NCBI RefSeq assembly: GCF_001677475.2
Contig: NZ_CP015229.1
Source of the DNA: Escherichia coli
GTDB taxonomy: Bacteria; Pseudomonadota; Gammaproteobacteria; Enterobacterales; Enterobacteriaceae
DNA: 64,000 bases
Direction: 5' to 3' (one strand)
In this document: positions 5,048 through 54,322 of the stretch, one piece after another
Layout of the letters: each line of letters starts with the position of its first letter
Position numbering within the stretch: the first letter of the stretch is position 1
Notes under the pieces: generated by a model
Told to the model about the DNA's origin: nothing
Database searches by the model: none
Seen by the model: only the letters and a program-made list of their open reading frames with translations
Program-made: the position numbers and the translations under genes

Positions 5048-5271
5048 TTATGATTTCTCCTGCAGGTGTGACGCCTCCGCCCTGCGTGGGGGCAAAGTTA
5101 TTAAGCTGATTTACAGCCTGATTATTGTGCGTGAGGCGGCGCACATAATCCAGTATTCACAGCGATAATTATTGTAATTGCCGCTGCCTTTCATCAGCAG
5201 ATGTTAAAACATCGTTATGCAAATACGGAAGTGAAAGTTACTCACAGCACATTGAATAAACGGTATGATGA

Positions 5272-6141
<870 letters not shown>

Positions 6142-6172
6142 AAGTCCGCCCGGTTCGCCGGGCATCTTCTCA

Positions 6173-8152
6173 TCAGAAGCGATAATCCACTGCCATAAAG
6201 TAACGACGTCCGTCTTCGTTATAGCTGTAGTCATCACGACTGAGATCCTTGTCGCCAAGGTTCAGCACGCCTGCGCGCAGTTTGACGTCTTTAGTTACCT
6301 GCCAGGCCGCGCCGGTATTCCAGATGGTATAACCGCCCGGTGTTTTAGCCGTAGCGCTGTCGGCTCGTTTCTGCCCGGTATAGTGCCCAGAAACATAGAA
6401 TGACCAGTCTTCCAGCGCCAGCGGTTTCCAGTCCAGCGTACCGTTAGCGGTATGGAACGGCAGATCGGATAGCGGTTTGTTTTCGCCGTTGCTGACATCA
6501 CGACCATCGTTGTAGGTGTAGTTGAGTGACAGTTTCCATTCATCGTTGAACGGAATTTTCAGTTCGGTTTCCACGCCCTGAATACGAGCTTTGTTAACGT
6601 TGTAGTAGCTAAATACCGGCACACCGTTCGCTGTAAAACCAACAAAGTTTTGGTAGCCCGGTGCAGCATTGACGTCAGACGTACGGCTGATGCTGATACG
6701 ATCTTTCACATCGTTACGGAAAACGGTAACGCTGGATTCAACCCCTTCCAGCCAGCCTTCTTCACCCATGTAGTAAAGCCCCAGCTCCCAACTTTCGCTG
6801 GTTTCTGGTTTCAGATCCGGGCTACCCACAATCTTACATGCGCCACGGCAGGAATTGCTCGTCCAGTCAGGGCTAAGTTGCAACAGAGAAGGTGCTTTAA
6901 AAGCTGTCGCCCAGCCCCCTTTCACCGTTACGGTGTCGGTGGCGTTATAAACCAGGTAGGCACGCGGACTCCAGTGTTCACCGTAGGTTTCGTGATCGTC
7001 CATACGCACGCCGGTCGTCAGCGCCAGCGGCTCGAAGATCCGCCATTCATCTTCCACAAATAGCGCGTACTGGCTGGCAGACGTTTTGGAGCTGGTTCCC
7101 CCGGTCAGGTTCACCGCATCACTAAGTTTGTCGTGACGCCATTCACCGCCAACCGTGAGAAACTGATTAATCGCCGTCAGCGGCAACGTGTATTTGCCGT
7201 CGACCGTATTGCTTTCGGAAGTTATCGGACTGCTGTTGCCAGGGTTTTTATTCTCGACTTTCTCACCGTAGTATTTCAGTTCGCTGGTGCCGTAATCCCA
7301 ACGCCCATTATGGCTGACGGAGTAGTTCTGGCGTTCCAGGCGGTTTTTGTCCAGCGAGTCGGAATCACGATCCTGACGGTCGAAACCGTATCCGGCAGTA
7401 AAATCGTGATTTTGATTCGGTGTCCAGGCAAATTCGACATTGCCGTCGCGGCTGGAGAATCCTTCAATACGCGGCGTTTCTCCGGTATCGGTTGTCGTTG
7501 AGTTTTGCGGGTCATCCTTTTCACGTTTTGCCAGGCTGCCGTAAGCTTTCATTCCCAGCACACCGTCAATTAATGGTCCGCTGGTAAAGAACTGACCGTT
7601 ATAGGTATCACCGCGATCGCGATGTTCCTGAATGGTGGTATCGACGGTAACGGTACCCGACCATTTCTGACCGATTTTTTTGGTGATGATATTCACTACA
7701 CCGCCGAGCGCATCGGAACCGTACAGCGACGACATCGGGCCACGAACCACTTCAATACGTTCGATGGAATCGACCGGGATCCAGTTCAGATCGAAATCAT
7801 TGTGGCGGAAGACGGCATTGCGGGAGTTAACGCGTTTACCGTCGACAAGAATCAGGGTATAGCTGCTGTCCAGACCACGAATACTAACGCCCTTACGGTT
7901 ATCCCCTTCGTTCGTCAGTTGTACGCCAGGCACTTCTTTGAGGACATCCTTCAGATTCTGTACCGGTTTTCGCTGTAGGTCTTCCTGGGTAATGACGCTG
8001 ATACTGGCGGGAGCATCTTTAAGGTTTTGTTCAACGGAAGATGCAGTGACAACCATCGTTTCGCCATCATCATCGACCGCTAACACAGGCCATGCACAAG
8101 AAATAGCGGACAAACACAGCCCGACCCGTACGAAAGGGTTCAACCTAAACAT
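6173..8152 (-). CDS. cirA: TonB-dependent catecholate siderophore / colicin I receptor
   Basis: 659-aa ORF with signal peptide, TonB box (ETMVVTAS), plug and beta-barrel ending in aromatic F. Confidence 0.95.
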
Positions 8153-8321
8153 TCCATATCTCCATGAGGTAACTACGAAAATAAAATGGGTTATCGCTCA
8201 CATCTTCTTCACGTCCCCTTGCGTACGGCAGCATCGCGGTGGACTTATTTATATGCAGGTGATCATCCCAGAAAGCCGGAACAGCCTCTGATTTGTCAGC
8301 CTTTTTTGATTGCGGCGTAAC

Positions 8322-8350
8322 GATAATGCAAACGATAACAATTATCAATC
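8322..8350 (-). promoter_or_regulatory. Fur box in the cirA promoter
   Basis: Minus-strand reads GATTGATAATTGTTATCGTTTGCATTATC, matching the GATAATGATAATCATTATC consensus about 170 bp upstream of the cirA start. Confidence 0.6.
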
Positions 8351-8443
8351 CAAATGTTAAATTTTATATCCGCATGATTTGTCAGGGAAATGGAATTGAA
8401 AAAGCCCTCTCGGTTGAGAGGGCTTAGCAAGGAAGGGAGAAAC

Positions 8444-9913
8444 TTATTTCTTATCGTTCTGCGGGAACTTCATTTCGCTGTAGCGTACGAAGTGAGTTCC
8501 TTTAATCAGCTTGTAGCCGAACCAAATAATCAGGAACAGCGGGATACCAATATACGTTGCCGCTACGCCGCCCCAGTCAATGGTATCTTTCAGGAATGCT
8601 TCGTAGTTCTGGCCCAAAGTGATAATCAGACACAGAATGAATGCGAAGATCGGCCCCAGTGGGAAGAAACCTGAACGGTACGGCAGATCGTTAATGTCGT
8701 GTCCCTGCAATACGTAACCGCGACGGAAGCGATAGTGGCTAATGGCAATCCCCAGCCAGGCGATAAAACCCGTCATCCCGGAGGTGTTCAGCAGCCACAG
8801 GTATACCGTCTGATTGCCAAACATGGAGGTCAGGAAGCACAGACCGGCAATCACCGTCGTCGCATACAGCGCATTACGCGGCACGCCACCACGCGACAGT
8901 TTAGCGAAAATGCGCGGCGCTTTACCGTCACACGCCAGGGTGTACAGCATACGAGTAGACGCATACATACCGGAGTTACCCGCTGACAGCACCGCCGTCA
9001 GAATAACTGCGTTCATCACCGCCGCCGCAGAGAGCAGACCCGCGTGCTGGAACACCAGGGTGAACGGACTGACGCTGATGTCTTTAACATCGTTACGCAG
9101 CAGGCTCGGATCGGTGTACGGAATAATCAGGCTGATAATCAGGATCGCGAACACATAGAACAACAGGATTCGCCAGAACACCTGACGTACCGCGCGTGGA
9201 ATGTTTTTCGCCGGATCTTCGGACTCGCCTGCAGCAATACCGATCAGCTCGGTTCCCTGGAAAGAGAAGCCGACAATCATAGCTACGCCGATCATCGCCG
9301 CAAAACCACCAGCAAACGGCGCTTCGCCGATTGTCCAGTTGCTCCAGCCCGCAGGCTGCGCGCCTTTGAAGATACCGATAATCATCAGCACGCCAACGAT
9401 GATAAAGACAATAACTGTCGTGACTTTGATCAGTGAGAACCAGTATTCCGCTTCACCAAAGCCACGAACTGAGATGTAGTTCAGCAGGAAGATAACGCCG
9501 AGGAACAGCGCACTCCAGATCCAGCCCGGTGTATCCGGGAACCACCAGCTCATGACCAGCTGAGCTGCAACCAGGTCAACGGCGATAGTCACCGCCCAGT
9601 TGTACCAGTAGTTCCAGCCCAGCGCGAAGCCAAAGCCTTCTTCAACATAGTTCTGACCATAAGTGGCAAACGAACCGGAAACCGGCATATATGCAGCCAG
9701 TTCACCGAGACTGGTCATCAGGAAGTAAACCATCAGGCCAATCAACATATACGAGAGCAATGCCCCGCCCGGACCTGCCTGAGAAATCGTTGCGCCAGAG
9801 GCAACAAAAAGACCTGTACCGATGGAACCGCCAATGGCAATCATCGTCAGGTGACGCGCCTTTAATTCACGGAGTAAGCCCGGCGCTTCTGTGGTTTTAG
9901 TTTCGGAAACCAT
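8444..9913 (-). CDS. lysP: Lysine-specific permease (APC family)
   Basis: 489-aa 12-TM amino-acid permease ORF, MVSETKTTEAPGLLRELKARHLTMIAIGGSIGTGLF. Confidence 0.95.
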   Translation of the reverse strand: MVSETKTTEAPGLLRELKARHLTMIAIGGSIGTGLFVASGATISQAGPGGALLSYMLIGLMVYFLMTSLGELAAYMPVSGSFATYGQNYVEEGFGFALGWNYWYNWAVTIAVDLVAAQLVMSWWFPDTPGWIWSALFLGVIFLLNYISVRGFGEAEYWFSLIKVTTVIVFIIVGVLMIIGIFKGAQPAGWSNWTIGEAPFAGGFAAMIGVAMIVGFSFQGTELIGIAAGESEDPAKNIPRAVRQVFWRILLFYVFAILIISLIIPYTDPSLLRNDVKDISVSPFTLVFQHAGLLSAAAVMNAVILTAVLSAGNSGMYASTRMLYTLACDGKAPRIFAKLSRGGVPRNALYATTVIAGLCFLTSMFGNQTVYLWLLNTSGMTGFIAWLGIAISHYRFRRGYVLQGHDINDLPYRSGFFPLGPIFAFILCLIITLGQNYEAFLKDTIDWGGVAATYIGIPLFLIIWFGYKLIKGTHFVRYSEMKFPQNDKK

Positions 9914-10117
9914 ACAAAAATGCTATCCATCTTAAAAATGAGGCGCGATTGTAGCAGACGATTGGCAATCCTTCCGGCAGAAATACACGGTTATAAGACA
10001 CCTTCATGATCGCCCAGGGATTATAAGTAAAGCAGCCAATCTCTTTTCTGGCGAATGCATGCTGAGGGCGCTGCGTCACGAAATCGACACAGCACCAGCA
10101 TGTTCTTGTACAGCAAC

Positions 10118-10999
10118 TTAACGCGGTACATTCGCGGGATCGCAATAGTCCAGAAAGCGCCGTAGCGCGTTGGAAAGGTGTTTTTGCCGATGATGTATAC
10201 GCCACAACGTACGCATCAGGCGCGGCAGAGGGACCGCAACTTCACTTAATGTGCCTGCCTGCAATTGATCTTCAATCACCCGTCGCGACAGGCAACTAAT
10301 TCCCAACCCATGACGCACCGCATGTTTGATTGCCTCGGAGTTACCTAATTCCATCGCCATCTCAAACTTCGGTAAATGTGACAGCAACAGATAATCGACA
10401 ATCTCCCGCGTGCCGGAGCCGCGTTCACGCAGGATCCACGGCGCAGCGGCCAGCTGTTCTAAGGTGACCGGACCACGAGCCAATGGCGAAGTCGGCGCGG
10501 CGAAAACCACCAGCTCGTCTTCCAGCCACGGTTCAGAAATGATTTCAGTGCTGTGGCACGGTCCTTCAATAAAGCCAATATCAACGCGGAAATCCAGCAC
10601 CGCTTGCATCACGTCCTGGCTGTTCCCAACGCTAAGTTCAATCGGCAACTGCGGATAATCATGGCGATAACGGGCGATAACTGCAGGCAGAATGTAGTTA
10701 CCGATGGTACTACTGGCATAGATACGAATCGCGCCGTTGTCTTCGCGAAACAGTTGTTCGATTTCAACCGCCTGTTCAAGTAGTGCCAACGCACGCGGAT
10801 AGAGCAGCCGCCCGTGTTCATTAACAACTAGTCTTTTACCCACGCGATCAAACAATTGCACGCCAAGCTGCCCTTCCAGGTCGGTCAAGGCTGCGCTCAC
10901 TGCTGATTGCGACAACGCCAGCATCACCGACGCCTGGGTGGTTGATCCACTTTTCAATACTTCTGCAAAAACTTCCAACTGCCGGAGGGTGATGTGCAT
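10118..10999 (-). CDS. yeiE: LysR-type transcriptional regulator
   Basis: 293-aa ORF with N-terminal HTH ([24 protein letters not shown]) and LysR substrate domain; divergent from yeiH. Confidence 0.9.
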
Positions 11000-11097
11000 A
11001 GTCGCTTACCACTTATAAAGATTAATTATAAATATATAATCAATTTTATTTTTAAACCAGTTAGTCGTAACCTTATGCCCGGTTAAAGGAGAGGGTT

Positions 11098-12147
11098 ATG
11101 ACGAATATCACCTTACAGAAACAACATCGTACACTGTGGCATTTTATTCCGGGGTTAGCCCTGAGTGCAGTTATCACCGGGGTCGCCCTGTGGGGTGGTT
11201 CCATTCCCGCGGTTGCGGGTGCCGGGTTTAGTGCCCTCACCCTCGCAATCTTGTTGGGGATGGTTTTAGGCAACACCATCTATCCGCACATCTGGAAAAG
11301 CTGTGACGGTGGTGTGCTGTTTGCCAAGCAATATTTATTACGTCTGGGTATCATTCTTTATGGCTTCCGTCTGACGTTCTCGCAAATTGCCGATGTCGGT
11401 ATCAGTGGGATCATCATTGACGTGCTGACGCTGTCCAGTACCTTCCTGCTGGCTTGCTTCCTGGGGCAGAAAGTGTTTGGTCTGGATAAGCACACCAGCT
11501 GGTTGATCGGTGCCGGTAGCAGTATCTGTGGCGCTGCCGCGGTACTGGCGACTGAGCCGGTAGTGAAAGCGGAAGCCAGTAAAGTAACCGTGGCTGTTGC
11601 AACCGTTGTTATCTTCGGGACCGTCGCGATTTTCCTCTACCCGGCGATATATCCGCTGATGTCTCAATGGTTTAGTCCGGAAACTTTCGGTATCTACATT
11701 GGTTCTACTGTGCACGAAGTGGCGCAGGTGGTGGCGGCAGGTCATGCCATCAGCCCGGATGCAGAAAACGCAGCAGTTATTTCCAAAATGCTGCGCGTGA
11801 TGATGCTGGCTCCGTTCCTCATCCTGCTGGCGGCGCGTGTTAAACAGCTGTCTGGGGCGAACAGCGGCGAGAAAAGCAAAATCACTATTCCGTGGTTTGC
11901 CATCTTGTTCATCGTAGTTGCCATCTTTAACTCGTTCCACCTGTTACCGCAGAGTGTGGTGAACATGCTGGTAACGCTGGATACCTTCCTGCTGGCAATG
12001 GCGATGGCGGCGCTGGGTCTGACCACTCACGTCAGCGCGCTGAAAAAAGCCGGGGCGAAACCTCTGCTGATGGCACTGGTACTGTTTGCCTGGCTGATTG
12101 TTGGTGGTGGTGCGATTAACTATGTGATTCAAAGCGTCATCGCATAA
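11098..12147 (+). CDS. yeiH: UPF0324 inner-membrane protein
   Basis: 349-aa polytopic membrane ORF divergent from yeiE. Confidence 0.85.
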
Positions 12148-12220
12148 ACCACTACATCTTGCTCCTGTTAACCCGCTATCATTACCGTTTTCCTCCAGCG
12201 GGTTTAACAGGAGTCCTCGC

Positions 12221-13078
12221 ATGAAATACATTGGAGCGCACGTTAGTGCTGCTGGCGGTCTGGCAAATGCCGCAATTCGCGCCGCCGAAATCGACGCAAC
12301 CGCGTTTGCCTTGTTCACCAAAAACCAACGTCAGTGGCGTGCCGCACCGCTCACGACGCAAACCATCGATGAATTCAAAGCCGCCTGTGAAAAATATCAC
12401 TACACATCGGCGCAAATTCTTCCCCACGACAGTTATCTGATTAACCTCGGACATCCGGTCACTGAAGCTCTGGAAAAATCGCGCGATGCCTTTATAGATG
12501 AAATGCAGCGTTGCGAACAGCTGGGGCTTTCTTTGCTCAACTTCCACCCTGGCAGCCATCTGATGCAGATTTCAGAAGAGGATTGCCTTGCGCGTATTGC
12601 CGAATCCATCAACATTGCGCTGGATAAAACTCAAGGTGTAACAGCGGTGATTGAAAACACCGCCGGTCAGGGCAGCAATTTAGGGTTTAAATTCGAACAT
12701 CTCGCGGCGATTATCGATGGCGTGGAAGATAAATCCCGCGTCGGCGTCTGCATTGATACCTGCCATGCTTTCGCTGCCGGGTATGATTTGCGTACTCCAG
12801 CCGAATGCGAGAAAACGTTCGCTGATTTTGCCCGTATTGTTGGCTTTAAGTATCTGCGTGGGATGCACCTTAACGATGCGAAAAGCACCTTTGGCAGCCG
12901 CGTTGACCGCCATCATAGCCTCGGTGAAGGCAATATCGGTCATGATGCGTTCCGCTGGATCATGCAAGACGACCGTTTCGACGGCATTCCGCTGATCCTT
13001 GAAACCATCAACCCGGATATCTGGGCAGAAGAGATCGCCTGGCTGAAAGCGCAACAAACTGAAAAAGCGGTAGCCTGA
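12221..13078 (+). CDS. nfo: Endonuclease IV (AP endonuclease)
   Basis: 285-aa [28 protein letters not shown]... of the xylose-isomerase-like TIM-barrel AP endonuclease 2 family. Confidence 0.95.
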
Positions 13079-13080
13079 AG

Positions 13081-14169
13081 ATGAATAACCGGGAAAAGGA
13101 GATCCTTGCAATTTTACGGCGTAACCCGCTGATTCAGCAGAACGAAATTGCGGACATGCTGCAAATCAGTCGTTCGCGCGTTGCGGCGCATATTATGGAT
13201 TTAATGCGTAAAGGGCGGATTAAAGGCAAAGGTTACATTCTCACTGAGCAGGAATACTGCGTAGTGGTGGGGACAATCAATATGGATATTCGCGGGATGG
13301 CGGATATCCGTTACCCGCAAGCGGCTTCTCATCCCGGAACAATTCATTGCTCGGCGGGCGGCGTTGGACGCAATATCGCCCACAATCTGGCGCTGTTAGG
13401 CCGCGACGTCCATTTGCTTTCAGTGATTGGCGATGACTTTTATGGCGAAATGCTCCTGGAAGAAACGCGCCGTGCCGGCGTGAATGTCTCCGGCTGCGTT
13501 CGTTTACATGGCCGAAGCACATCGACGTATCTGGCAATTGCCAATCGAGACGATGAAACCGTGCTGGCGATTAACGATACCCATCTGCTGGAACAGTTAT
13601 CGCCGCAATTATTGAACGGGTCGCGCGATTTACTTCGTCATGCGGGCGTGGTACTGGCTGATTGCAACCTGACAGCCGAGGCGCTGGAGTGGGTCTTTAC
13701 CCTCGCTGATGAAATCCCGGTGTTTGTCGATACCGTTTCAGAATTCAAAGCGGGCAAAATCAAACACTGGCTGGCGCATATTCACACCCTGAAACCCACT
13801 TTACCGGAGCTGGAAATTATATGGGGACAGGCGATCACCAGCGATGCTGACCGTAATGCCGCAGTGAATGCATTGCATCAGCAAGGTGTTCAGCATCTGT
13901 TTGTTTATTTGCCCGATGAGTCAGTTTATTGCAGCGAAAAGGATGGAGAACAATTTTTGCTGACCGCGCCAGCGCATACGACAGTAGACAGTTTTGGTGC
14001 TGACGATGGTTTTATGGCGGGCCTGGTATATAGCTTTCTGGAGGGAAACAATTTCCGTGACAGCGCCCGTTTTGCGATGGCCTGCGCGGCAATTTCACGC
14101 GCCAGCGGCAGCTTAAACAACCCTACCCTGTCTGCCGATAACGCGCTTTCATTAGTGCCAATGGTGTAA
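13081..14169 (+). CDS. yeiI: PfkB-family sugar/nucleoside kinase with N-terminal HTH
   Basis: 362-aa ORF; N-terminal winged-HTH then ribokinase-like fold with GAGD motif near the C-terminus. Confidence 0.85.
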   Translation: MNNREKEILAILRRNPLIQQNEIADMLQISRSRVAAHIMDLMRKGRIKGKGYILTEQEYCVVVGTINMDIRGMADIRYPQAASHPGTIHCSAGGVGRNIAHNLALLGRDVHLLSVIGDDFYGEMLLEETRRAGVNVSGCVRLHGRSTSTYLAIANRDDETVLAINDTHLLEQLSPQLLNGSRDLLRHAGVVLADCNLTAEALEWVFTLADEIPVFVDTVSEFKAGKIKHWLAHIHTLKPTLPELEIIWGQAITSDADRNAAVNALHQQGVQHLFVYLPDESVYCSEKDGEQFLLTAPAHTTVDSFGADDGFMAGLVYSFLEGNNFRDSARFAMACAAISRASGSLNNPTLSADNALSLVPMV

Positions 14170-14224
14170 CAATGTTGCCGGATTCGACGCTTGACCGCAT
14201 CTTATCCGGCTCATAAATCGCGCA

Positions 14225-15475
14225 CTACGCTAAGCCAATAAAGAATCCTGCAATGGTGGCACTCATCAGGTTAGAAAGTGTCGCCGCCGCCAGCGCGCGT
14301 AAACCAAGCTGGGCGATTTCCGGCGCACGGTGTGGCGCAACCGCAGAAAACGCCCCCACCACCACCCCGATAGAACCAAAGTTAGCGAAACCGCACAACG
14401 CGAAGGAAATAATCGCCACGGTTTTAGCATCCAGAGTGCAAGCCGTTTGCAGATAGGGTGAGAAATTGAGATAAGCGACAAATTCATTTATTGCCAGTTT
14501 CTGTCCAATCAAACTCCCGGCAAGATTCGCATCACTCCAGTCAACACCCATCACCCACGCTAGTGGGGCCAGCAGGTAACCTAAAATGGACTCCAGCGAG
14601 GCATGTTCAAAACCAAACCAGCCGCCAACGCCGCCGATAATACCGTTAATTAACGCAATGATAGCGACAAATGCCATCACCACTGTCGCCACACCTGCGG
14701 CGATTTTCAGCCCGGTCATTGCCCCTGTCGCAGCGGCTTCAATAATGCTTTTTGGCGGTGTTTCGGTGAAAGAGAGGTTATTAAAGGAAACCTGCGAAGA
14801 TTCCGTTGCCGGGCTTAACAGGCGGGCAAACAAGATCCCGCCGGGGATCGCCATTAACGATGCCGCCAGCAGATATTCCACAGGCACGCCCAGTGCGGCG
14901 TAACCAATCATTGTCGAACCAGCAATCGAGGCCATCCCGCTACAAATCGCTGTAAATAGTTCATTGCGATTCAGACGATCGATAAAGGGTTTGACGATTG
15001 CCGGAATTTCGTTTTGCCCGAGGAAAATGGTAGTGACCGCGACGAATGACTCAATCTTGCTGATATTTAATGCTTTCTGGAATATACCGCCGAGAATGCG
15101 AATTAAGATCCCCATCACACCGATGTAGTAGAGAATACTCACCAGTGCTGTAACGAAGATAATTGCCGGTAATACCCTGAAGCCAAAGATAAATCCTGCG
15201 CCATCAAATAAGGTGTCCATTTTCGGTCCGACCAGAGAACCGAAGATAAAAGCGCTACCTGCATCGCTGTACGCCATCACTTTATGCACGCCAAAAGCGA
15301 CTTTTTCAGCGACCCAACGCCCTGGAGGTAACCAAAGCATAATCCCGCCAATCACGACCTGTAATACCAGCGCCGCACCGACAGTACGCAGGCTGATCTT
15401 CTTCTTGTTTACTGACAGTAAAAATGCAATTGCCAGCAGTACCACCATTCCCAGAACACTTCTCATGACATCCAT
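14225..15475 (-). CDS. nupX: Nucleoside permease (CNT/NupC family)
   Basis: 416-aa ORF, paralogous to the psuT ORF at 17412-18662 (near-identical N- and C-termini). Confidence 0.9.
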   Translation of the reverse strand: MDVMRSVLGMVVLLAIAFLLSVNKKKISLRTVGAALVLQVVIGGIMLWLPPGRWVAEKVAFGVHKVMAYSDAGSAFIFGSLVGPKMDTLFDGAGFIFGFRVLPAIIFVTALVSILYYIGVMGILIRILGGIFQKALNISKIESFVAVTTIFLGQNEIPAIVKPFIDRLNRNELFTAICSGMASIAGSTMIGYAALGVPVEYLLAASLMAIPGGILFARLLSPATESSQVSFNNLSFTETPPKSIIEAAATGAMTGLKIAAGVATVVMAFVAIIALINGIIGGVGGWFGFEHASLESILGYLLAPLAWVMGVDWSDANLAGSLIGQKLAINEFVAYLNFSPYLQTACTLDAKTVAIISFALCGFANFGSIGVVVGAFSAVAPHRAPEIAQLGLRALAAATLSNLMSATIAGFFIGLA

Positions 15476-15574
15476 AGTTATTATCTCTTCATGTCATTTT
15501 GGGCGACGGCTTTCTGCCCATCAGAAATAGCCGGGCCTGCATCTTGCGATACTGACCCGGCTTGTTATCAACAC

Positions 15575-16516
15575 TTAATGGGTTTTGATATAGCCGCGCA
15601 CGCACTCTTCGACTAATCCCCAGAACCAGTCGGTATCAATAGTGATGCCGACTTTGGTATTAGCGGGCTTGCCAAGAACGCCCAGCTCGTCGCAGACAGT
15701 ACGCCCATAGCAAGGTCCACTGTTGACGTCCACTTCGACGTACATCTCCTGGGTTTTAATGCCATCAGGGTTAATCAGATAACCGATGCAGGTGGCGTCA
15801 TGCACCGGGCCGCCAGCCAGGCCGTAGTTTTCGAACTGGGTTTTGAGAGTGAAGTTCATGATGTCGCTGAACAGCTCTCCGGCAGGGCCGCCTGCCCTTT
15901 CCATTCGTGCAATCACGTCCGGGGTGCAAACGGTCTGGTTGGTGAGATCGAGGCCCATCATTACTAATGGAACGCCGGAGGTGAACACCACACGTGCCGC
16001 TTCCGGGTCAGCAAAGATGTTGAACTCGGCAGATGGGGTGAAGTTGCCAGTACCGTAAGCGCCGCCCATTAGCACTATTTCACGGATTTTCGGCAGGATT
16101 GCTGGTTGCATACGCATTGCCACCGCGATATTTGAAAGCGGACCAACCGGCACCAAAGTGATATCGCCATCGCTTGCCATCAGGGTATCAATGATATATT
16201 TCACCGCATGAGTGCTTTCTGCCTGGCGGGTCAGCGGCTCGAATACCGGGCCATCCAGTCCGGTTTCACCGTGAATATTATCGGCAACGATTTGTTGCCG
16301 CATAATGGGCTGTGGCATCCCCGCATAAACCGGAACATTAATCTCCAGTTTCTGGCAAACATTCAGACCATTAATTAATGTTTTATCGAGGGTTTGATTA
16401 CCCGCTACAATGGTGATACCTAATAAATCAATCGCCGGATGTTTCGCTGCCATCATCATTGCAATAGCATCATCATGACCCGGATCACAATCCAGAATAA
16501 TTTTTCTCTTTTCCAT
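15575..16516 (-). CDS. rihB: Pyrimidine-specific ribonucleoside hydrolase
   Basis: 313-aa ORF with N-terminal DCDPGHDDA nucleoside-hydrolase signature. Confidence 0.9.
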
Positions 16517-16684
16517 TGTTTATTTCCTCTGTTTCCAGTTGCGTTATTTTTTCTACAGCAAAGAAAATTCGACCGGGCCGATGATTGAATCTTAACAACA
16601 GCGTACGTATGCTAAATATGAGAAATCTCATAGCGGATAAACATCGTGAAAGAAATCCACAATAATGATCTTAAGCAGCAATTG

Positions 16685-17344
16685 ATGAGTGAATCCGCGT
16701 TTAAGGATTGCTTTTCAACGGATATTTCAGCCGATACGCGGCTGTTTCATTTTTTAGCGCGTGACTACATTGTGCAGGAAGGGCAACAGCCATCCTGGCT
16801 GTTTTACTTGACGCGAGGCCGCGCCAGGCTTTACGCCACGCTTGCTAATGGTCGCGTGTCGCTGATCGATTTCTTTGCCGCGCCCTGTTTTATTGGCGAG
16901 ATTGAGTTAATCGATAAAGACCATGAACCGCGTGCGGTGCAGGCTATTGAAGAGTGTTGGTGTCTTGCGCTCCCTATGAAACATTACCGCCCGCTGTTAT
17001 TAAACGACACGCTATTTTTACGAAAACTCTGCGTCACCTTAAGTCATAAAAATTACCGTAATATTGTTTCTTTAACTCAGAATCAATCATTTCCGTTAGT
17101 GAATCGCCTGGCAGCTTTTATATTACTCTCGCAGGAGGGTGATCTTTATCACGAAAAACATACCCAGGCAGCAGAGTATTTAGGTGTTACTTATCGTCAC
17201 TTGCTATATGTGATCGCTCAACTCATTCACGACGGTTTATTAATTAAAAGTAAGAAAGGGTATTTAATTAAAAACAGAAAGCAGTTGTCAGGACTGGCGC
17301 TGGAGATGGACCCGGAGAATAAATTCTCCGGGATGATGCAGTAA
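16685..17344 (+). CDS. yeiL: CRP/FNR-family transcriptional regulator
   Basis: cNMP-binding-like domain plus C-terminal HTH; start taken at MSESAFKD (the ORF track extends 13 codons upstream to 16646). Confidence 0.8.
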
Positions 17345-17411
17345 AAAATAATCTGCAATAGCGCGATTGCCGGATGCAACGCTTAATAAGGCGTACATCC
17401 GGCAATGAAAC

Positions 17412-18662
17412 TCAAGCTAAACCAATAAAGAACCCGGCGATGGTCGCGCTCATCAGGTTGGAAAGCGTTGCTGCTGCCAGCGCCCGTAAACCAAGCTGGG
17501 CGATTTCCGGCGCGCGTTTTGGCGAAATAGCCGAAAATGCGCCAACGACAACACCGATAGAACCAAAGTTAGCAAAACCACAAAGCGCAAAGGAGATAAT
17601 CGCCACGGTTTTCACTTCCAGCGTGCCGCCCGTTTGCAGGTATGGGGAGAAACTCAGGTAAGCGACGAATTCGTTAATCGCCAGTTTCTGCCCAATCAGG
17701 CTACCCGCAAGGTTGGCATCACTCCAGTCCACGCCCATAATCCACGCCAGCGGTGCCAGCACATAGCCAAAAATACTTTCCAGAGAGGCATTGGCGAAAC
17801 CAAACCAGCCGCCAATTCCGCCGATAATGCCGTTGATCAGCGCAATAATTGCGACAAACGCCATTACCACCGTCGCCACACCGGCGGCGATTTTCAACCC
17901 GGTCATCGCACCGCTCGCCGCTGCTTCGATAAAGCTTTTTGGCGGCGTTTCGCTGAACGACAGATTTTCAAATGTCACCTGCGAAGGCTCGGTTGCCGGG
18001 CTAAGAATACGTGCAAACAAAATACCGCCAGGGATCGCCATCAGCGATGCCGCTAACAGGTAGTCAATTGGTACGCCCATTCCGGCATAACCAATCATCA
18101 TCGAACCAGCAATGGACGCCATCCCGCTACAAATTGCGGTAAACAACTCGTTGCGATTCATACGTTCGATAAACGGTTTAACGATCGCAGGGATCTCATT
18201 TTGCCCGAGGAAAATAGTAGTAACCGCAACAAAAGATTCGATTTTGCTGATGTTGAGGGCTTTCTGGAAAATGCTGCCAAGGATGCGAATCAGCAGCCCC
18301 ATCACGCCAATGTAGTACAGCAGACTGATGAGCGCAGTAACGAAAATAATCGCCGGAAGTACGCGAAAGGCGAAGATAAAACCCGCACCGTCAAACAGGA
18401 CATCCATTTTCGGCCCAACCAGCGAACCAAAAATGAAGGCGCTACCGGCATCACTGTAAGACATCACTTTATGAACGCCTAATGCCGCCTGTTCTACTGC
18501 CCATTTTCCCGGTGGGAAGTAGAGCATGATGCCACCAATAGCGATTTGCAGCAGCAGTGCGGCTCCAACCGTGCGCAAACTGATGCCCTTTTTATTCACT
18601 GACAACAGAAATGCTATTGCCAGTAACACCACCATCCCCACAACACTTCTCATTATATCCAT
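17412..18662 (-). CDS. psuT: Pseudouridine/nucleoside transporter (NupC family)
   Basis: 416-aa ORF paralogous to nupX; heads the psuT-psuG-psuK gene string. Confidence 0.85.
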   Translation of the reverse strand: MDIMRSVVGMVVLLAIAFLLSVNKKGISLRTVGAALLLQIAIGGIMLYFPPGKWAVEQAALGVHKVMSYSDAGSAFIFGSLVGPKMDVLFDGAGFIFAFRVLPAIIFVTALISLLYYIGVMGLLIRILGSIFQKALNISKIESFVAVTTIFLGQNEIPAIVKPFIERMNRNELFTAICSGMASIAGSMMIGYAGMGVPIDYLLAASLMAIPGGILFARILSPATEPSQVTFENLSFSETPPKSFIEAAASGAMTGLKIAAGVATVVMAFVAIIALINGIIGGIGGWFGFANASLESIFGYVLAPLAWIMGVDWSDANLAGSLIGQKLAINEFVAYLSFSPYLQTGGTLEVKTVAIISFALCGFANFGSIGVVVGAFSAISPKRAPEIAQLGLRALAAATLSNLMSATIAGFFIGLA

Positions 18663-47539: not shown

Positions 47540-47616
47540 CGGCACGTAGCGCAGCCTGGTAGCGCACCGTCATGGGGTGTCGGGGGTCGGAGGTTCAAAT
47601 CCTCTCGTGCCGACCA
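47540..47616 (+). tRNA. proL: tRNA-Pro (anticodon GGG)
   Basis: CGGCACGTAGCGCAGCCTGGTAGCGCACCGTCATGGGGTGTCGGGGGTCGGAGGTTCAAATCCTCTCGTGCCGACCA; cloverleaf with GGG anticodon; encoded CCA absent. Confidence 0.9.
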
Positions 47617-47618
47617 AA
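47602..47618 (+). repeat. attL core (3' end of tRNA-Pro)
   Basis: CTCTCGTGCCGACCAAA, identical to the copy at 58597-58613. Confidence 0.8.
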
Positions 47619-47652
47619 TCGCCCACCGGAAAGCACCGAATAAGACAGGGAT

Positions 47653-49565: not shown

Positions 49566-49772
49566 GTGGAAACAATCAGAAAAATACTTACCCGTCAGGA
49601 AGTAAAAAATATTCTGCGCATCAAGGCAGACAGTTCGCTACAGGACATGATCAACGCCGGAAAATTCCCGAAAGGCTTCAAAATCGGTCTGCGTCGTGTT
49701 GGCTGGTATGAAGATGAAGTGCTGGCCTGGCTGAAAGAGCGCGAGGAAGAAGCGCGCGGAACGGCTGCGTAA
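49566..49772 (+). CDS. alpA: AlpA-family (HTH_17) transcriptional regulator / excisionase-like protein
   Basis: GTG start with GAGG SD; 68 aa, LTRQEVKNILRIKADSSLQDMINAGKFPKGFKIGLRRVGWYEDEVLAWL matches the AlpA/prophage CP4-57 regulator pattern. Confidence 0.8.
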   Translation: METIRKILTRQEVKNILRIKADSSLQDMINAGKFPKGFKIGLRRVGWYEDEVLAWLKEREEEARGTAA

Positions 49773-50054
49773 TGGTGTGAGGCGTAACGCGATGAACATA
49801 ACAAAAAGCGCCCCGTTGCCGGAGCGCCCTTGCGAACAATTAACCTACTGCGCAAAAAATGAATCAGTGCAGTGGGATTATATCAACCGTGTAGCGAAGC
49901 GCCACAATTGCCGGATAACAGGCAAAACAAAGGCCACCCGCTACGGTGGCCCTTCGACACAAGCTACACGTTATCCCCAACGCATAAGCGCTGATTACTA
50001 TGCCGTGATTACATCCGGTTGGCAATGTGATCAGTGCGCTGGCTTGCTGGTGGG

Positions 50055-50234
50055 CTATTCCTGCTCTTTGGCCTTGCGTCGCTGGCGGCGTTTGATCTCG
50101 CCTTGCATTGACGCAATGATGAATTGTGATGTGCTTTCGCCTGATTCTTTCACTGATTCCATGGCGTTTACTATTTCGTGTGGTACACGAGCCTTTAGAG
50201 CTTGTGATTTTGCGTTTGTTGTACCCGTTGCCAT
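50055..50234 (-). CDS. Ribbon-helix-helix (Arc/CopG-like) DNA-binding protein; candidate island repressor
   Basis: 59 aa MATGTTNAKSQALKARVPHEIVNAMESVKESGESTSQFIIASMQGEIKRRQRRKAKEQE; GAGGA SD 6 nt upstream; terminator-like hairpin GGCCACCCGCTACGGTGGCC at 49932-49952 with T-rich tail on the minus strand. Confidence 0.6.
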   Translation of the reverse strand: MATGTTNAKSQALKARVPHEIVNAMESVKESGESTSQFIIASMQGEIKRRQRRKAKEQE

Positions 50235-50298
50235 TTCTATTCCTCTGTTGGATTGGTGGGGGACAGTATACACAGAAAAAGCACAAATAAAACTCTTA

Positions 50299-50335
50299 AT
50301 GTGGACCACACCTAGAGCATATAGTGGGCCACACC
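50299..50335. promoter_or_regulatory. Two palindromic operator-like sites (TGTGGACCACACCT and GTGGGCCACACCT) in the divergent promoter region
   Basis: GTGG-N-CCAC palindromes 24 bp apart between the RHH gene and the rightward small-gene operon. Confidence 0.45.
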
Positions 50336-50433
50336 TTGAGGTTATCAAGGTGCATAAATGCAAAGCCCCGCAAGTGTCGTTACCACTCGCAGGGCTTCTA
50401 ACCACCAACGATAGCAGAAGTATCGAGGTAGCT

Positions 50434-50640
50434 ATGTTAAATCATACCACACACCCGCAAGGGCGGGACTCGCACAACCTGAATAAATACATCTGGCGTT
50501 TTATCGCTCTGAGCACGGCACAACCGCGCGTGATTACCATTGAGGCCACCAGCGAACAGGAAGCACGTCAGCAATCTCCTGATGGCTGCGTGATGGTATT
50601 CGCCGCCCGTATTCGTCAGGAGGTGCGCCATGTGCAATAA
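50434..50640 (+). CDS. Hypothetical protein (69 aa), first gene of the rightward operon
   Basis: ATG with GAGGT SD; stop overlaps the next start (ATG at 50630). Confidence 0.4.
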   Translation: MLNHTTHPQGRDSHNLNKYIWRFIALSTAQPRVITIEATSEQEARQQSPDGCVMVFAARIRQEVRHVQ

Positions 50641-50866
50641 CACCCGTCCGGACGCAGCCGCCGAGGCTATCAGAACGCTGATGGACGCGCTGATTGATAT
50701 TTCTGTTATCGCAGACAAGGCGCATAAGCACGCCACCAGCGAAACAGAATATGCCGGGGCTTTCGTTCCTCACTCACTGGCTGTTATGCAATTTAGTGCT
50801 GATATGGCGCTGAATGAGGCCAGCAAAATTATCATGGCTGATATGGAGGTGGTGAGCCATGAATAA
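50630..50866 (+). CDS. Hypothetical protein (78 aa)
   Basis: Strong AGGAGG SD 5 nt upstream; translational coupling on both sides. Confidence 0.5.
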   Translation: MCNNTRPDAAAEAIRTLMDALIDISVIADKAHKHATSETEYAGAFVPHSLAVMQFSADMALNEASKIIMADMEVVSHE

Positions 50867-51107
50867 TCATGATTATGCGGGGGCGATTATGCGAAATAAA
50901 CGTGATATTGAAGACCTGGCATTTGAAGCCCTGCACTCTGCGAAAAAGATCAGGGAAGTCGTCAATATGTGGATGAACAGCCTTAGCACCGATAAATCCG
51001 ATAGCAGAGAGGAAATTCTTATTTCTTTGTTGTTAGACCTGGCAAATACACAGGTTTCTCTGACATCTGATATTGAACTCGCCGCTAAAAAGCTGCCTCT
51101 GGAGTAA
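50859..51107 (+). CDS. Hypothetical protein (82 aa)
   Basis: GGAGGTG SD; overlaps the previous stop. Confidence 0.5.
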   Translation: MNNHDYAGAIMRNKRDIEDLAFEALHSAKKIREVVNMWMNSLSTDKSDSREEILISLLLDLANTQVSLTSDIELAAKKLPLE

Positions 51108-51113
51108 AAAAAC

Positions 51114-51413
51114 ATGAAAAAGAAAAATTCTGGCTTTACTGCCAGTGGTCTCCCTCGGCCTGAAATCCGCCCCGGCGATATTTTCCGGGATAACTACGGC
51201 GGCACGGTAACGATTAAAAGTATTGCCGGACGGTGCGTTACTTACCGCCGTGATGGGTACAGCTACGACTGCGTGATGCCTGTTTATCAGTTCCGGCGTG
51301 ATTTTTCACTGATACAGGCCACACCACGCAAACAGCCCACCAGCAACGCAAAGGCACGGGCAAATATTCAGAAAATGAAAAACATGATTAACGCATTCAG
51401 GGGCACAAAATGA
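51114..51413 (+). CDS. Hypothetical protein (99 aa)
   Basis: GGAG SD; stop overlaps the pri start (ATGA). Confidence 0.45.
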   Translation: MKKKNSGFTASGLPRPEIRPGDIFRDNYGGTVTIKSIAGRCVTYRRDGYSYDCVMPVYQFRRDFSLIQATPRKQPTSNAKARANIQKMKNMINAFRGTK

Positions 51414-53215
51414 AACTGGCACCGAACTTAAAAAAACAGCCACACGACAAAATGACCGAAGTCATTATTTTTGCAGGTAGTGATGCCTGGGCGCACGCGA
51501 AACAGTGGCAGGAACAGGACGGGCGACTTGCTGGCGACAACGTGCCACCTGTATGGCTGGGAGACAGCCAGCTTGACGAACTGGCAGACCTGAAAATTAT
51601 CGACGATGGTCGCTATTGTGTCCGGCTGTACAAGGCAGGCCACATCAAGCCGTCAAATATTAATGCCATCGGGCAAAAGCTGGCGGCGGCAGGTGTACGG
51701 GATGCGAGATATTACCCTGAGGGAATGCACAGCCAGAAGCGGGAGGAGTGGCGCGAATATCTGGAGCGTGCGCGCCAGAATCTTTCTGATGGTCTGGTTA
51801 TTCAGCTTCCTGTTAAGAAAAAAACAGAAGACAGCGCCGCACCACTGGCGCTTAACCAGATGGGAGCAAGCCAGCGCGGCGAAGTTCTCCTGGCACGTTA
51901 TGGCGGCGAACTGGCAATTAATGCGGACTCTGACACCGTTCACCACTACAACGGCGTTGTATGGGAGCCGGTACAGGATAAAGAGTTACAGCGGGCTATG
52001 GCACAGATTTTTATTGATGCGGAGATCAGTTATTCGCAGAACGCCATCAAATCGGCGGTCGATACCATGAAGTTAAGTTTGCCCGTAATGGGGAATACCG
52101 CCCGTAACCTGATTGGATTCAGTAACGGTGTTTTTGATACCCGGACAGGCGATTTTCGGGAGCATGACAAAAACGACTGGCTGTTAATTGCCAGTGAATT
52201 ACCGTTCAGCCCGCCAGCAGAGGGGGAAACGCTGGCAACGCATGCGCCGAATTTCTGGAAATGGTTGCGCCGTTCGGTGGCAGAGAATGGCCGTAAAGCG
52301 GATCGCGTACTGGCGGCGTTATTCATGGTGCTGGCGAACCGATACGACTGGCAGTTATTTCTTGAGGTAACGGGGCCGGGTGGAAGCGGTAAAAGCGTAA
52401 TGGCGGAGATTTGCACCATGCTGGCGGGTAAGGCCAACACGGTATCGGCAAGCATGAAGGCGCTGGAAGATGCCAGGGAACGCGCGTTAGTGGTTGGCTT
52501 TTCGCTGATTATCATGCCGGATATGACCCGCTACGCTGGTGATGGTGCAGGTATTAAGGCCATTACAGGCGGTGACAAAGTGGCAATCGACCCGAAACAT
52601 AAAGCTCCCTACTCAACACGCATTCAGGCGGTCGTGCTGGCGGTGAACAATAACGCCATGTCATTCAGTGACCGCAGTGGGGGGATCTCACGTCGTCGGG
52701 TGATATTCAATTTTTCGGAGGTTGTACCGGAGAACGAACGCGACCCCATGCTGGCAGAAAAAATAGAAGGAGAGCTGGCGGTTGTGATTCGCCACCTGCT
52801 TACTCGTTTTTCTGACCAGGACAAAGCTAAACGCCTGCTGTATGAGCAGCAGAAATCAGAAGAAGCTCTGGTGATAAAACGCGAGGGCGATTCGCTGGTG
52901 GACTTCTGCGGCTATCTCATGTCGTCGGTAATGTGTGATGGTCTGTTAGTGGGTAATGCCGAAATTATTCCGTTCAGTCCGCGCAGATATCTTTATCACG
53001 CCTATCTGGCATATATGAGGGCACACGGATTCGGTAAACCTGTAACACTGACGCGCTTCGGTAAAGATATGCCGGGGGCAATGGCGGAATATGGCAGGGA
53101 GTATATGAAACGGAAAACGAAGCACGGTTTGCGTTCAAATGTGACCCTGACAGAGGATTCAGAAGACTGGATGCCATCATGTACATCGGTCACAAATGAC
53201 GATGGAAAAAATTAA
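51410..53215 (+). CDS. Replication protein: primase C-terminal-like / SF3-type helicase P-loop NTPase (satellite Pri-Rep)
   Basis: 601-aa ORF with Walker A TGPGGSGKS and a hydrophobic stretch ending in D (Walker B-like, VVGFSLIIMPD); immediately followed by an iteron-rich origin. Confidence 0.75.
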   Translation: MKLAPNLKKQPHDKMTEVIIFAGSDAWAHAKQWQEQDGRLAGDNVPPVWLGDSQLDELADLKIIDDGRYCVRLYKAGHIKPSNINAIGQKLAAAGVRDARYYPEGMHSQKREEWREYLERARQNLSDGLVIQLPVKKKTEDSAAPLALNQMGASQRGEVLLARYGGELAINADSDTVHHYNGVVWEPVQDKELQRAMAQIFIDAEISYSQNAIKSAVDTMKLSLPVMGNTARNLIGFSNGVFDTRTGDFREHDKNDWLLIASELPFSPPAEGETLATHAPNFWKWLRRSVAENGRKADRVLAALFMVLANRYDWQLFLEVTGPGGSGKSVMAEICTMLAGKANTVSASMKALEDARERALVVGFSLIIMPDMTRYAGDGAGIKAITGGDKVAIDPKHKAPYSTRIQAVVLAVNNNAMSFSDRSGGISRRRVIFNFSEVVPENERDPMLAEKIEGELAVVIRHLLTRFSDQDKAKRLLYEQQKSEEALVIKREGDSLVDFCGYLMSSVMCDGLLVGNAEIIPFSPRRYLYHAYLAYMRAHGFGKPVTLTRFGKDMPGAMAEYGREYMKRKTKHGLRSNVTLTEDSEDWMPSCTSVTNDDGKN

Positions 53216-53227
53216 ACTTATGGAATA

Positions 53228-53459
53228 ACTGTTCACCACTGTTCACCCTGTCATAAATGTCTTTTATATCAGTACATTATAGGGTGAACAGTTATTTGTG
53301 AACTGTTCACCAAACTATTCACTGTTCACCTTTTTGATTATTTATTGAGCTTTAAGGGTGAACAGTGGTGAACAGTTGGTGAATAGTTTTTGTGAAACTG
53401 TTCACCCCTTAACATCATGAATAAAAAGGGAAAATAGCAAAAGGTGAACAGGTGAAGAG
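53228..53459. repeat. Iteron-type replication origin: about 10 copies of ACTGTTCACC / GGTGAACAG in both orientations with AT-rich spacers
   Basis: CACTGTTCACCACTGTTCACC, GGGTGAACAGTT, GTGAACTGTTCACC, TTCACTGTTCACC, GGGTGAACAGTGGTGAACAGTTGGTGAATAG, GAAACTGTTCACC, AAGGTGAACAGGTGAAGAG. Confidence 0.75.
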
Positions 53460-53502: not shown

Positions 53503-53748
53503 GTGACAACGAAGCACGCAAAAAAACCACAATCACACGCCCTTGATTTGACAGAACACTGGCTGAGGGTGGCGATAAAAATCATCGACCGCAACGCGGG
53601 AGAAGGATACGCGAAAGCGCATCCCGAACTGATAAGCGCATTCATGACCACGGCGGCGGCAAATTTTGCCACACTGACAGAACGGGAGATTGCCGAAGCG
53701 GAACAGGTGACAACCATCAACGTTAAAACCGGAGAGCAGACAGCATGA
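53503..53748 (+). CDS. Hypothetical protein (81 aa)
   Basis: GTG start with GAGGT SD; overlaps the start of the next ORF. Confidence 0.4.
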   Translation: MTTKHAKKPQSHALDLTEHWLRVAIKIIDRNAGEGYAKAHPELISAFMTTAAANFATLTEREIAEAEQVTTINVKTGEQTA

Positions 53749-54044
53749 CAGCACAGATAGCGGCTTGCGGGCGGCTGGTGGCTGACCCGCAGTTAAAGAC
53801 CACCAGCAAAGGGACACAAATGGCGATGGCGAGTATGGCGGTTCCCCTGCCGTGCAGCCAGGCAGATGACGGAACGGCGACGATGTGGTTATCTGTCCTG
53901 GCGTTTGGCAGACAGGCCGACGCACTGGCAAAACACCACAAAGGCGAACTCCTGAGCGTGGCGGGTAACATGCAGGTGAGCCAGTGGACAGGCCAGAACG
54001 GCGCGACCGGGCGGCAAAAAAGGTCAACAGGGCCAGGCCACTGA
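53745..54044 (+). CDS. SSB-like OB-fold single-stranded DNA-binding protein (short form)
   Basis: IAACGRLVADPQLKTT...WLSVLAFGRQADALAKHHKGELLSVAGNMQVSQWTGQNG follows the SSB OB-fold pattern (GxL..DPEL... W..V.xFG ... KG..V.V.G.L....W). Confidence 0.55.
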   Translation: MTAQIAACGRLVADPQLKTTSKGTQMAMASMAVPLPCSQADDGTATMWLSVLAFGRQADALAKHHKGELLSVAGNMQVSQWTGQNGATGRQKRSTGPGH

Positions 54045-54322
54045 CGCACTGAACAGGGCAAAACAACAGTCAGGGAATGATGAACCGTACGGCGATAATA
54101 TACCGTTTTAAATTCTGCAAACAAAAAGATGCCGGAAAAAAATAGATTTTCCGGCATGCTACATAAATCCCGACCAAAGGAAGTAAATACATTAACACGA
54201 ATTATCAGCACTGAAGTTGTCACGGCATATTTTATACAACATTGCACTTGGTTGCATGTATTCGCATAGCAGACATCGGTAATAGAATATATTCACAATT
54301 ATTTGTAATGAATGTAAAGAGG

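Follow-up and report, generated by a model that had tools for sequence, protein, structure and literature searches.

In a stretch of 64,000 nucleotides of Escherichia coli DNA (hereafter the window; contig NZ_CP015229.1 of NCBI RefSeq assembly GCF_001677475.2, to which positions refer unless another source is named), four small open reading frames (ORFs), ORF1 to ORF4, occupy positions 50434-51413 and lead into the primase-helicase gene of a satellite which, classed from its sequence, is of the Gram-negative phage-inducible chromosomal island (PICI) type and lies at tRNA-Pro. We propose, with a probability of about 0.6, that these four genes make up the 5′ half of a translation-coupled early/replication operon of the satellite, laid out like the left operon of phage P4. 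The members of the gene chain, as taken from the ORF list and the raw sequence, are the following:

50434-50640, + strand: ORF1, 68 aa, isoelectric point (pI) 9.3, Icd/Kil family by profile match, first gene of the chain
50630-50866, + strand: ORF2, 78 aa, pI 4.8, 11-nt overlap with ORF1
50859-51107, + strand: ORF3, 82 aa, hybrid gene according to alignment, 8-nt overlap with ORF2
51114-51413, + strand: ORF4, 99 aa, DUF4222, pI 10.5, 6-nt gap after ORF3
51410-53215, + strand: primase-helicase, 601 aa, domains D5_N, DUF5906 and Pox_D5, last member of the chain

Coding capacity and junctions of the gene chain

The four ORFs tile their region on one strand and run directly into the primase-helicase gene, with junctions of -11, -8, +6 and -4 nt along the chain; at the last of these the primase ATG at 51410 shares the sequence ATGA with the stop of ORF4. 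Each start is preceded by a Shine-Dalgarno (SD) sequence, as the original prediction had stated, with GAGGT at 50425-50429 for ORF1 and AGGAGGT for ORF2. Specifically, the duplex energies with the 3′ end of the 16S rRNA are -7.2, -11.6, -10.6, -5.9 and -5.7 kcal/mol from ORF1 to the primase, and all five starts fall within the top 10% of the 1031 ATG triplets of the window, which served as background (median -2.2, 10th percentile -5.5, 1st percentile -8.6 kcal/mol). The further statement that stops overlap the next starts holds at 50630, 50859 and 51410 and fails between ORF3 and ORF4, which are separated by the 6-nt gap. Overall, the chain shows the structure expected of translational coupling, that is, stop-start overlaps or gaps of a few nucleotides, with the SD placed inside the upstream gene.

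Related loci (designated by L numbers) were collected by scanning an alignment of DUF4222 against viral contigs, which yielded 80 loci; the survey comprises 78 loci, namely 74 of those from viral contigs, the window and three of four E. coli loci. The ratio of nonsynonymous to synonymous substitution rates (dN/dS) was estimated by pairwise Nei-Gojobori comparison across related loci, trimming five codons at each end and discarding pairs whose dS was below 0.1. Median values were 0.14 for the Icd-like family of ORF1, 0.29 for the ORF2 family, 0.31 for the family of the ORF3 core (h4) and 0.39 for DUF4222, and the ratio exceeded 1 in at most 3% of the pairs in these four families. In relatives, the genes corresponding to ORF1-4 are present in the RefSeq annotation, mostly as 'hypothetical', and the 1.3-kb region is matched in 1883 of 5426 complete E. 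coli genomes. Since the rule employed to tile ORFs along these regions favours close starts, the same rule was run on controls. The real sequence gave complete tilings in 71 of 71 regions, with 94% of junctions within -30 to +7 nt; the reverse complement gave 33 of 71 regions and 39% of junctions, and shuffled sequence 45 of 213 regions and 30% of junctions.

The four ORFs are real protein-coding genes, and their families are under purifying selection. The reality of the ORFs, claimed in the original prediction, is thus borne out by the dN/dS range of 0.14-0.39, by the RefSeq annotation and by the junction layout in the 78 loci; moreover, poor conservation of the reading frames in related islands, which it had named as the finding that would speak against them, is not what is observed, as the frames are conserved. 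On the opposite view, the primase gene would have an untranslated leader in which at least some of these ORFs, or even all of them, stand open by chance. It could appeal to ORF2 and ORF3, which have no match in Pfam or NCBIfam, and to the 5′ end of ORF3, which is a deletion scar. Against it stand the dN/dS values, the assignment to PHROG families or the existence of hundreds of homologues, the strong SD sequences and a tiling far above both controls. The probability of this reading is close to nil, and it was rejected as contradicted by the conservation data.

An Icd/Kil-family gene at the head of the chain

Profile comparison places ORF1 in the same family as P4 Kil and P1 Icd. ORF1 matches the NCBIfam model NF033153 (Icd-like) with 70.3 bits (cut-off 25, E 9.9e-20), the score of P4 Kil being 76.1 bits (E 1.6e-21), and phrog_6196 with an E value of 8e-45, and the P1 record names icd by this family. 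The P4 sequence used is the 65-aa ORF at 8365-8168, which we take to be kil from its size and position. ORF1 also fits the traits of the family, whose members are small (about 65-75 aa) operon leaders with the next gene starting inside them or at their stop; the overlap with this next gene is 11 nt for ORF1, 8 nt in P4 and 4 nt in P1. This homology had been overlooked in the original prediction, which saw no recognisable motifs in the four ORFs: that description does not apply to ORF1 (NF033153) or ORF4 (PF13973). A sequence search matched no solved structure to ORF1, and the only match to it in phage genome records is a 16.5-kb satellite-like record. The PHROG label 'transcriptional repressor' carried by the ORF1 family most likely traces to the old annotation of a 137-aa P4 ORF as 'cI gene product', an ORF that contains the C4-type CI RNA.

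The relationship with P4 Kil and P1 Icd provides the best precedent for the reason why these genes are coupled. The coding strand of the P4 left operon reads orf88 (AlpA-like), CI RNA, kil, epsilon, orf151, orf106 and alpha, with overlaps of 8 nt at both the kil/epsilon and the epsilon/orf151 junctions. The window is colinear with this operon from alpA to the primase, with an Icd/Kil leader and overlapping small genes between; ORF1 forms the 3′ portion of a longer open frame, in the way that kil does within eta, and the slot between kil and the primase holds, in P4, the helper-derepression protein epsilon (PF25738, 'Derepression'). Kil is a truncated Eta; pairing of CI RNA with seqA terminates early the transcripts from a promoter internal to eta, and an upstream promoter gives full-length eta, whose translation blocks this termination, with the result that the downstream genes are read (PMC10111431). 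The immI operon of P1 (c4 RNA, icd, ant1/ant2) also has an Icd-family leader followed by an icd-dependent gene: the P1 record describes icd as 'apparently required for expression of ant', and the start of ant1 shares an ATGA with the end of icd. It differs from the window in that P1 icd is under the control of the C4 antisense RNA and in that the downstream gene is an anti-repressor, not a replication module.

By analogy, the overlaps in the window would pass ribosomes from gene to gene, so that expression of the replicase would depend on the start of translation at the head of the chain, and a transcript covered by ribosomes would escape Rho-dependent termination. Both effects, dependence on translation and escape from Rho, are documented for P4 kil/eta and P1 icd-ant. 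In this operon, ORF1 would be a growth- or division-inhibiting protein produced on induction, ORF2 and ORF3 exchangeable small acidic helical proteins acting on helper or host proteins, like P4 epsilon, and ORF4 a protein that assists the replicase via the N-terminal domain of the latter.

The family of ORF1 also bears on the proposal of a module for abortive infection or cell death, made up of the whole chain or a part of it, in which an Icd/Kil-like toxic effector is kept in check until a protein of the incoming phage releases it and the neighbouring small proteins and the primase serve sensing or activation. In the prophage-encoded growth-arrest system of strain ECOR61 (Silas et al., bioRxiv 10.1101/2023.04.06.535777), suppressor insertions fell in three neighbouring genes that overlap and include an Icd-like one. 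According to the same study, the arrest set off by phage orf24 was traced to three such small genes, removal of the Icd-like gene abolished the effect, and reconstitution of the growth arrest took six linked genes including a primase (bioRxiv 10.1101/2023.04.06.535777); in addition, a P4 prophage caused cell death in response to P22 Abc1. As judged by gene description, ECOR61 resembles the window in having adjacent, overlapping, primase-linked small genes of which one is Icd-like. It differs in that its Icd-like protein, of 122 aa, is preceded by two small genes and bears a long N-terminal extension that is missing from ORF1. Moreover, no PADLOC model is matched by ORF1-4, by the primase or by four cassette families of the related loci, and arrest could be a side product of derepression of a satellite early operon instead of a dedicated defence. 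A role in abortive infection, which we consider unlikely, is compatible with the operon assignment, and the two do not exclude each other.

ORF2, ORF3 and an array of exchangeable cassettes

The two proteins encoded in the middle of the chain are small, acidic and helical. ORF2 matches phrog_5146 (E 3e-38) and has homologues in 218 clusters, every one of which is called 'hypothetical'. Its AlphaFold2 model is a two-helix hairpin (helices 9-37 and 42-77, pLDDT 80.6), with no match in the PDB at E<=0.001 and no informative structural neighbour, and the N-terminal half of the protein is strongly conserved across variants. ORF3 is identified by alignment with relatives as a deletion hybrid rather than an original gene. 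Specifically, relatives carry two genes at this site, h3 (70 aa) and h4 (72 aa). According to the translations and the alignment, a 172-nt deletion within h3 retained its SD, its ATG and its first 13 nt, and put this remnant (the first four codons) in the frame of h4. The resulting scar corresponds to the first 10 codons of ORF3, preceding the ATG at 50889, which is the own, ancestral start of the h4 core. The deletion junction is contiguous in 1 of the 5426 complete E. coli genomes, O80:H26 EC-107, where RefSeq calls the 82-aa form of ORF3. As another locus (L004) is without h3 via a different junction, h3 has been lost at least twice.

All 78 survey loci have an Icd-like gene upstream of DUF4222, and the slot between the two is filled by 1-5 small ORFs, which are drawn from about eight families and combined in 37 arrangements; two of these cassettes are ORF2 and the core of ORF3. 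The families, clustered with a strict coverage rule that prevents merges through fusion ORFs, are mutually unrelated in hhalign profile comparison; a common origin was rejected because hhalign links only two of them, G3 and G8. The 291 junctions comprise 189 overlaps (of 28, 14, 11, 8, 4 or 1 nt), 89 gaps of +1 to +7 nt and 13 wider ones, and the short overlaps that join the cassettes are each equipped with a strong SD. Different pairs of cassettes use one and the same junction design, which consists of AGGAGGTG, 4-5 bases, CC and ATG, with the upstream stop within the next codons. At one junction, between families G2 and G4 (for example at about 2050-2100 of L014, and in L021 and L049), there is a run of 8-11 G whose length sets the outcome, which is an 8-nt overlap, a 28-nt overlap or a fused protein of 142-156 aa; this run could be slippage-prone or a sequencing artefact.

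The composition of the slot is relevant to the idea that ORF2 and ORF3 are effectors directed at the helper, that is, anti-repressors or interference factors like P4 epsilon, which binds the helper repressor. Epsilon is encoded at the corresponding place, after kil and ahead of the primase, and has the same overlaps of 8 nt. The 37 arrangements of interchangeable families are what would be expected of genes matched to different helpers, and both ORF2 and ORF3 have the small size, acidity and helical character already mentioned. However, neither resembles epsilon in sequence, the conserved N-terminal half of ORF2 suggests a constant partner, and in Gram-negative PICIs it is the helper that is reported to induce alpA and not the reverse. 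Such a function for ORF2 and ORF3 is possible, albeit rather improbable. The original prediction had remarked that this position in satellites often holds helper-interference or replication-accessory proteins, which is a reasonable conjecture: in P4 the homologous slot holds epsilon, and DUF4222 is always joined by ATGA to a replicase.

ORF4 and its replicase

The last small gene of the chain, ORF4, matches Pfam PF13973 (DUF4222) with 84.9 bits, against a cut-off of 27, over profile positions 1-53 of 53. Its structure model shows a five-strand barrel of the SH3/Tudor/KOW-like type followed by a basic C-terminal helix, and a sequence search matched no solved structure. In the surveyed loci DUF4222 is always the last small gene before the replicase, and its stop overlaps the replicase ATG (ATGA) in 78 of 78 loci; more distant DUF4222 proteins (28-36% identity) keep this arrangement next to DUF927 or AAA_25 replicases, and a tblastn search of 50,697 phage records found no match to the family. 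A distant relative (L093, 4778-5285) contains a tandem pair of DUF4222 genes ahead of an AAA_25 replicase.

The replicase that follows DUF4222 is one of three types, a D5-type primase, a RepA-type helicase or a DUF927 protein, which by BLASTP have only the N-terminal ~130 aa in common. This region, encoded in the window at 51410-51820, is 88% and 66% identical to the window in the loci L002 and L003; it has no Pfam match and always stands behind DUF4222. The primase of the window scores 97.5 bits against TIGR01613, under the cut-off of 108.7. From these associations we infer that ORF4 is a replicase accessory, which probably acts through the common N-terminal domain of the replicase.

In principle, the same could be said of the whole chain, namely that all four proteins are replication accessories acting with the primase-helicase at the origin and that coupling only sets their stoichiometry. 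The ORFs directly precede the replicase and share its transcript, the link of DUF4222 to a replicase is invariable, and ORF4 is basic with, in the model, a Tudor/KOW-like barrel, a fold used for binding nucleic acids or polymerase and helicase partners. On the other hand, the family of ORF1 is known for killing and division inhibition, not for replication (PMC10111431), the middle genes vary in number and family, the types of origin and replicase vary independently, and h3 was lost at least twice with different junctions. We therefore regard a replication role for all four proteins as very unlikely.

Upstream frame, leader and divergent candidate regulator

The region ahead of ORF1 contains the following features:

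49566-49772, + strand: alpA, AlpA/HTH_17 regulator (PF05930, E 4.5e-8)
49735-50433, + strand: stop-free extension of the ORF1 frame, ~230 codons (a 287-aa ORF in the ORF list)
50055-50234, - strand: YlcI/YnfO-family gene, 59 aa (phrog_949, E 1.7e-22; named so by RefSeq in relatives)
50296-50336, + strand: promoter-like site read from the sequence, TTAATG, 18 nt, TATAGT
50301-50313 and 50324-50336: two 13-nt direct repeats (GTGGnCCACACCT), GTGGACCACACCT and GTGGGCCACACCT, respectively, operator-like and overlapping the promoter
50364-50396, + strand: leader hairpin in the 5′ untranslated region of ORF1, predicted by RNAalifold
50397-50433, + strand: leader segment with TCTAACCACCAACGATAG (18 nt), then the conserved SD TATCGAGG, then the ORF1 ATG

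The stop-free frame opens at 49735, where it overlaps the 3′ end of alpA in another frame, and has candidate starts at GTG 49777 and ATG 49792; the stop of alpA (49770-49772) lies 4 nt ahead of the GTG. From there the frame crosses the YlcI/YnfO-like gene on the opposite strand, two leftward terminator-like hairpins, the promoter and the leader hairpin. When 600 nt of this region were compared in 35 distinct upstream variants, belonging to 14 sequence groups, the ORF1 frame had zero stops in 25 of the 35, while the other two + frames had on average 12.5 and 11.9 stops and were never stop-free. The ratio of nonsynonymous to synonymous polymorphism (pN/pS) of the frame is 0.5-1.0, as compared with the dN/dS of 0.14-0.39 of the four ORF families, which argues against a conserved protein encoded by it, and no Pfam or PHROG family is matched. 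In other words, the frame is kept and the protein is not, a pattern that is expected if it is the act of translation that matters, as reported for P4 eta. In the record vB_KppS-Ant, a 325-aa coding sequence ending in an Icd-like domain is annotated, followed by small ORFs with 8-nt and 4-nt overlaps and by a primase. The long frame of the window may likewise be translated. This suggests two modes of expression, with the short ORF1 produced from the internal promoter and a long read-through form from alpA-driven transcripts.

Concerning the internal promoter, its -35 element is TTGACG in relatives, and in alignments the repeat sequence at the promoter covaries with the variant of the YlcI/YnfO gene. 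The YlcI/YnfO-like protein is a candidate regulator of the ORF1 promoter, and gene and repeats look like a putative repressor-operator pair, one which is not described in the cited PICI literature. Downstream of the promoter, the hairpin of the leader is predicted with 8 pairs over 19 variants, of which 5 show compensatory double changes, and has no Rfam match; the TCTAACCACCAACGATAG stretch following it is near-invariant among relatives.

A C4, CI or isrK RNA upstream of ORF1 was rejected for the window, and is present in L003 and P4. A search of 951 nt with the Rfam models detects no C4, isrK or c4-a1b1 RNA in the window even when the E-value limit is relaxed to 10; a covariance model derived from the RNAs of P4, P1 and L003 matches 15 of 85 sources, the window not being among them. 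In this respect the window differs from P4, as it has neither the C4/CI RNA nor its target sites and carries instead the YlcI/YnfO-like gene and the operator-like repeats. The sister island L003, at the same tRNA-Pro site, has the same leader and the same first ~55 nt of ORF1; a ~350-nt insert then brings in a C4 cassette and a P4-Kil-like N-terminus, after which the sequence of the window resumes. The C4/isrK cassette is inserted within the Icd-like gene in L003 (6295-6774), L048 and L053. Its insertion yields a ~204-aa frame in which a truncated N-terminal Icd-like part is joined to a complete second Icd-like domain, and RefSeq names part of this frame 'ash family protein' (pseudo).

The junction design and the upstream frame, considered jointly, have a further possible reading, which we put forward tentatively and hold to be doubtful: effector cassettes shuffled by recombination at the shared junction (AGGAGGTG, a few bases, ATG, upstream stop), in an array gated by translation alone. 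Ribosomes would move along the stop-free and barely constrained frame from alpA to the Kil-like gene and from there to the primase, and a switch made up of a protein regulator and antisense transcription would replace the C4 RNA immunity of P4.

The satellite element

The island starts at the sole tRNA-Pro(GGG) gene (47540-47616), directly after yejM. A 28-nt repeat, present at 47598-47625 and 58593-58620 (86% identical), brackets ~11 kb as attL and attR, its first copy covering the 3′ end of the tRNA gene. From the left, the gene order is P4-type integrase, a 76-aa ORF, alpA, the divergent YlcI/YnfO-like gene, ORF1-4 and the primase; the primase is followed by iterons, a phrog_1231 gene, a gene for a single-stranded DNA-binding protein (SSB) and lambda-type genes for major head and decoration proteins, and the right part holds a second AlpA-like gene, a TerS homologue and an Ogr/Delta-like gene. 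The iterons are listed here:

53227-53410, unstranded: AACTGTTCACC iterons and a 29-nt repeat (repeat families D2 and D4), downstream of the primase

These iterons are presumed, by analogy, to be the replication origin, in agreement with the rule that the ori of PICIs lies downstream of pri (PMC10111431).

As in PICIs of the EcCICFT073 type (Fillol-Salom 2018; PMC10111431), there are int, alpA and a primase with a downstream origin, a single gene direction, a length of ~11 kb, a tRNA attachment site and captured late genes. Specifically, int, alpA and pri are co-directional, repeats lie downstream of pri, the length falls in the 10-15 kb range, flanking repeats are present, and the late functions are limited to the homologues of major head, decoration and TerS proteins, with no lysis genes or full virion set. 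An identical copy of the element is found in IMG/VR (locus L008). What sets the window apart from the described PICIs is the presence of coupled small genes between alpA and pri, which are not described in Fillol-Salom 2018 or PMC10111431; in the latter, the zone between alpA and the replication genes is called a 'Bro zone' and holds Bro-N proteins and immunity RNAs, neither of which is found in the window. P4-like satellites have the core genes sid, psu, delta, epsilon and an alpha-type primase, and the window departs from this set: PHROG and Pfam scans of the window detect no homologue of sid, psu or epsilon, only an Ogr/Delta-like ORF, the primase stays below the TIGR01613 cut-off, and the element of the window carries lambda-type capsid, decoration and TerS genes.

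Other observations concern the rest of the island. The Ogr/Delta-like activator ORF (57681-58052; phrog_994, phrog_10396) beside lambda-type capsid genes is an unexpected mix of P2/P4-type and lambdoid functions. The SSB gene (53745-54250) looks frameshifted: the ORF in the window has only 99 aa, and a 141-aa relative aligns to frame 1 of the window up to residue 118 and to frame 2 from residue 102. Tandem GGCT units (GGCTGGCT, 8-nt spacing, about seven copies) occupy 58156-58217, just inside the right end. Finally, one relative (L001, E. coli fS58a, 5260-18183) is inserted in the terminase large-subunit gene of a prophage; it is a helper-embedded PICI in the sense of PMC10111431.

Strength of the operon assignment and its implications

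Several points weigh against the proposed P4-like operon. The gap of 6 nt between ORF3 and ORF4 means that coupling at this junction would require re-initiation. A promoter scan did not call the internal promoter site, whose -35 element in the window is a weak match (3 of 6). As the window is without C4/CI RNA, the best-studied translation control of kil and icd is absent, and a modest C-over-G skew in the leader and ORF1 (maximum 1.7) provides no clear Rho loading site. Furthermore, ORF2, ORF3 and ORF4 have no sequence similarity to P4 epsilon, orf151 or orf106. The assignment to an operon is, in fact, a sequence-based one, and the biochemical functions given above for ORF1-4 are proposed functions.

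As regards the family to which it belongs, the element adds one more member to a known type, as a Gram-negative PICI with a P4-like early operon, and the finding is to this extent largely ordinary. Three features go beyond the cited literature: an array of cassettes that share one junction design, the strict coupling between DUF4222 and the replicase, and the stop-free frame that stands in place of a C4-controlled leader. The P4 framework from kil to alpha assigns testable roles to these genes, with a toxic lead gene, exchangeable small effectors and a DUF4222 partner for three types of replicase. The cited PICI literature offers no explanation of how transcription driven by AlpA extends to the replication genes in Gram-negative PICIs; if the frame between alpA and ORF1 works like P4 eta, it would provide the explanation.

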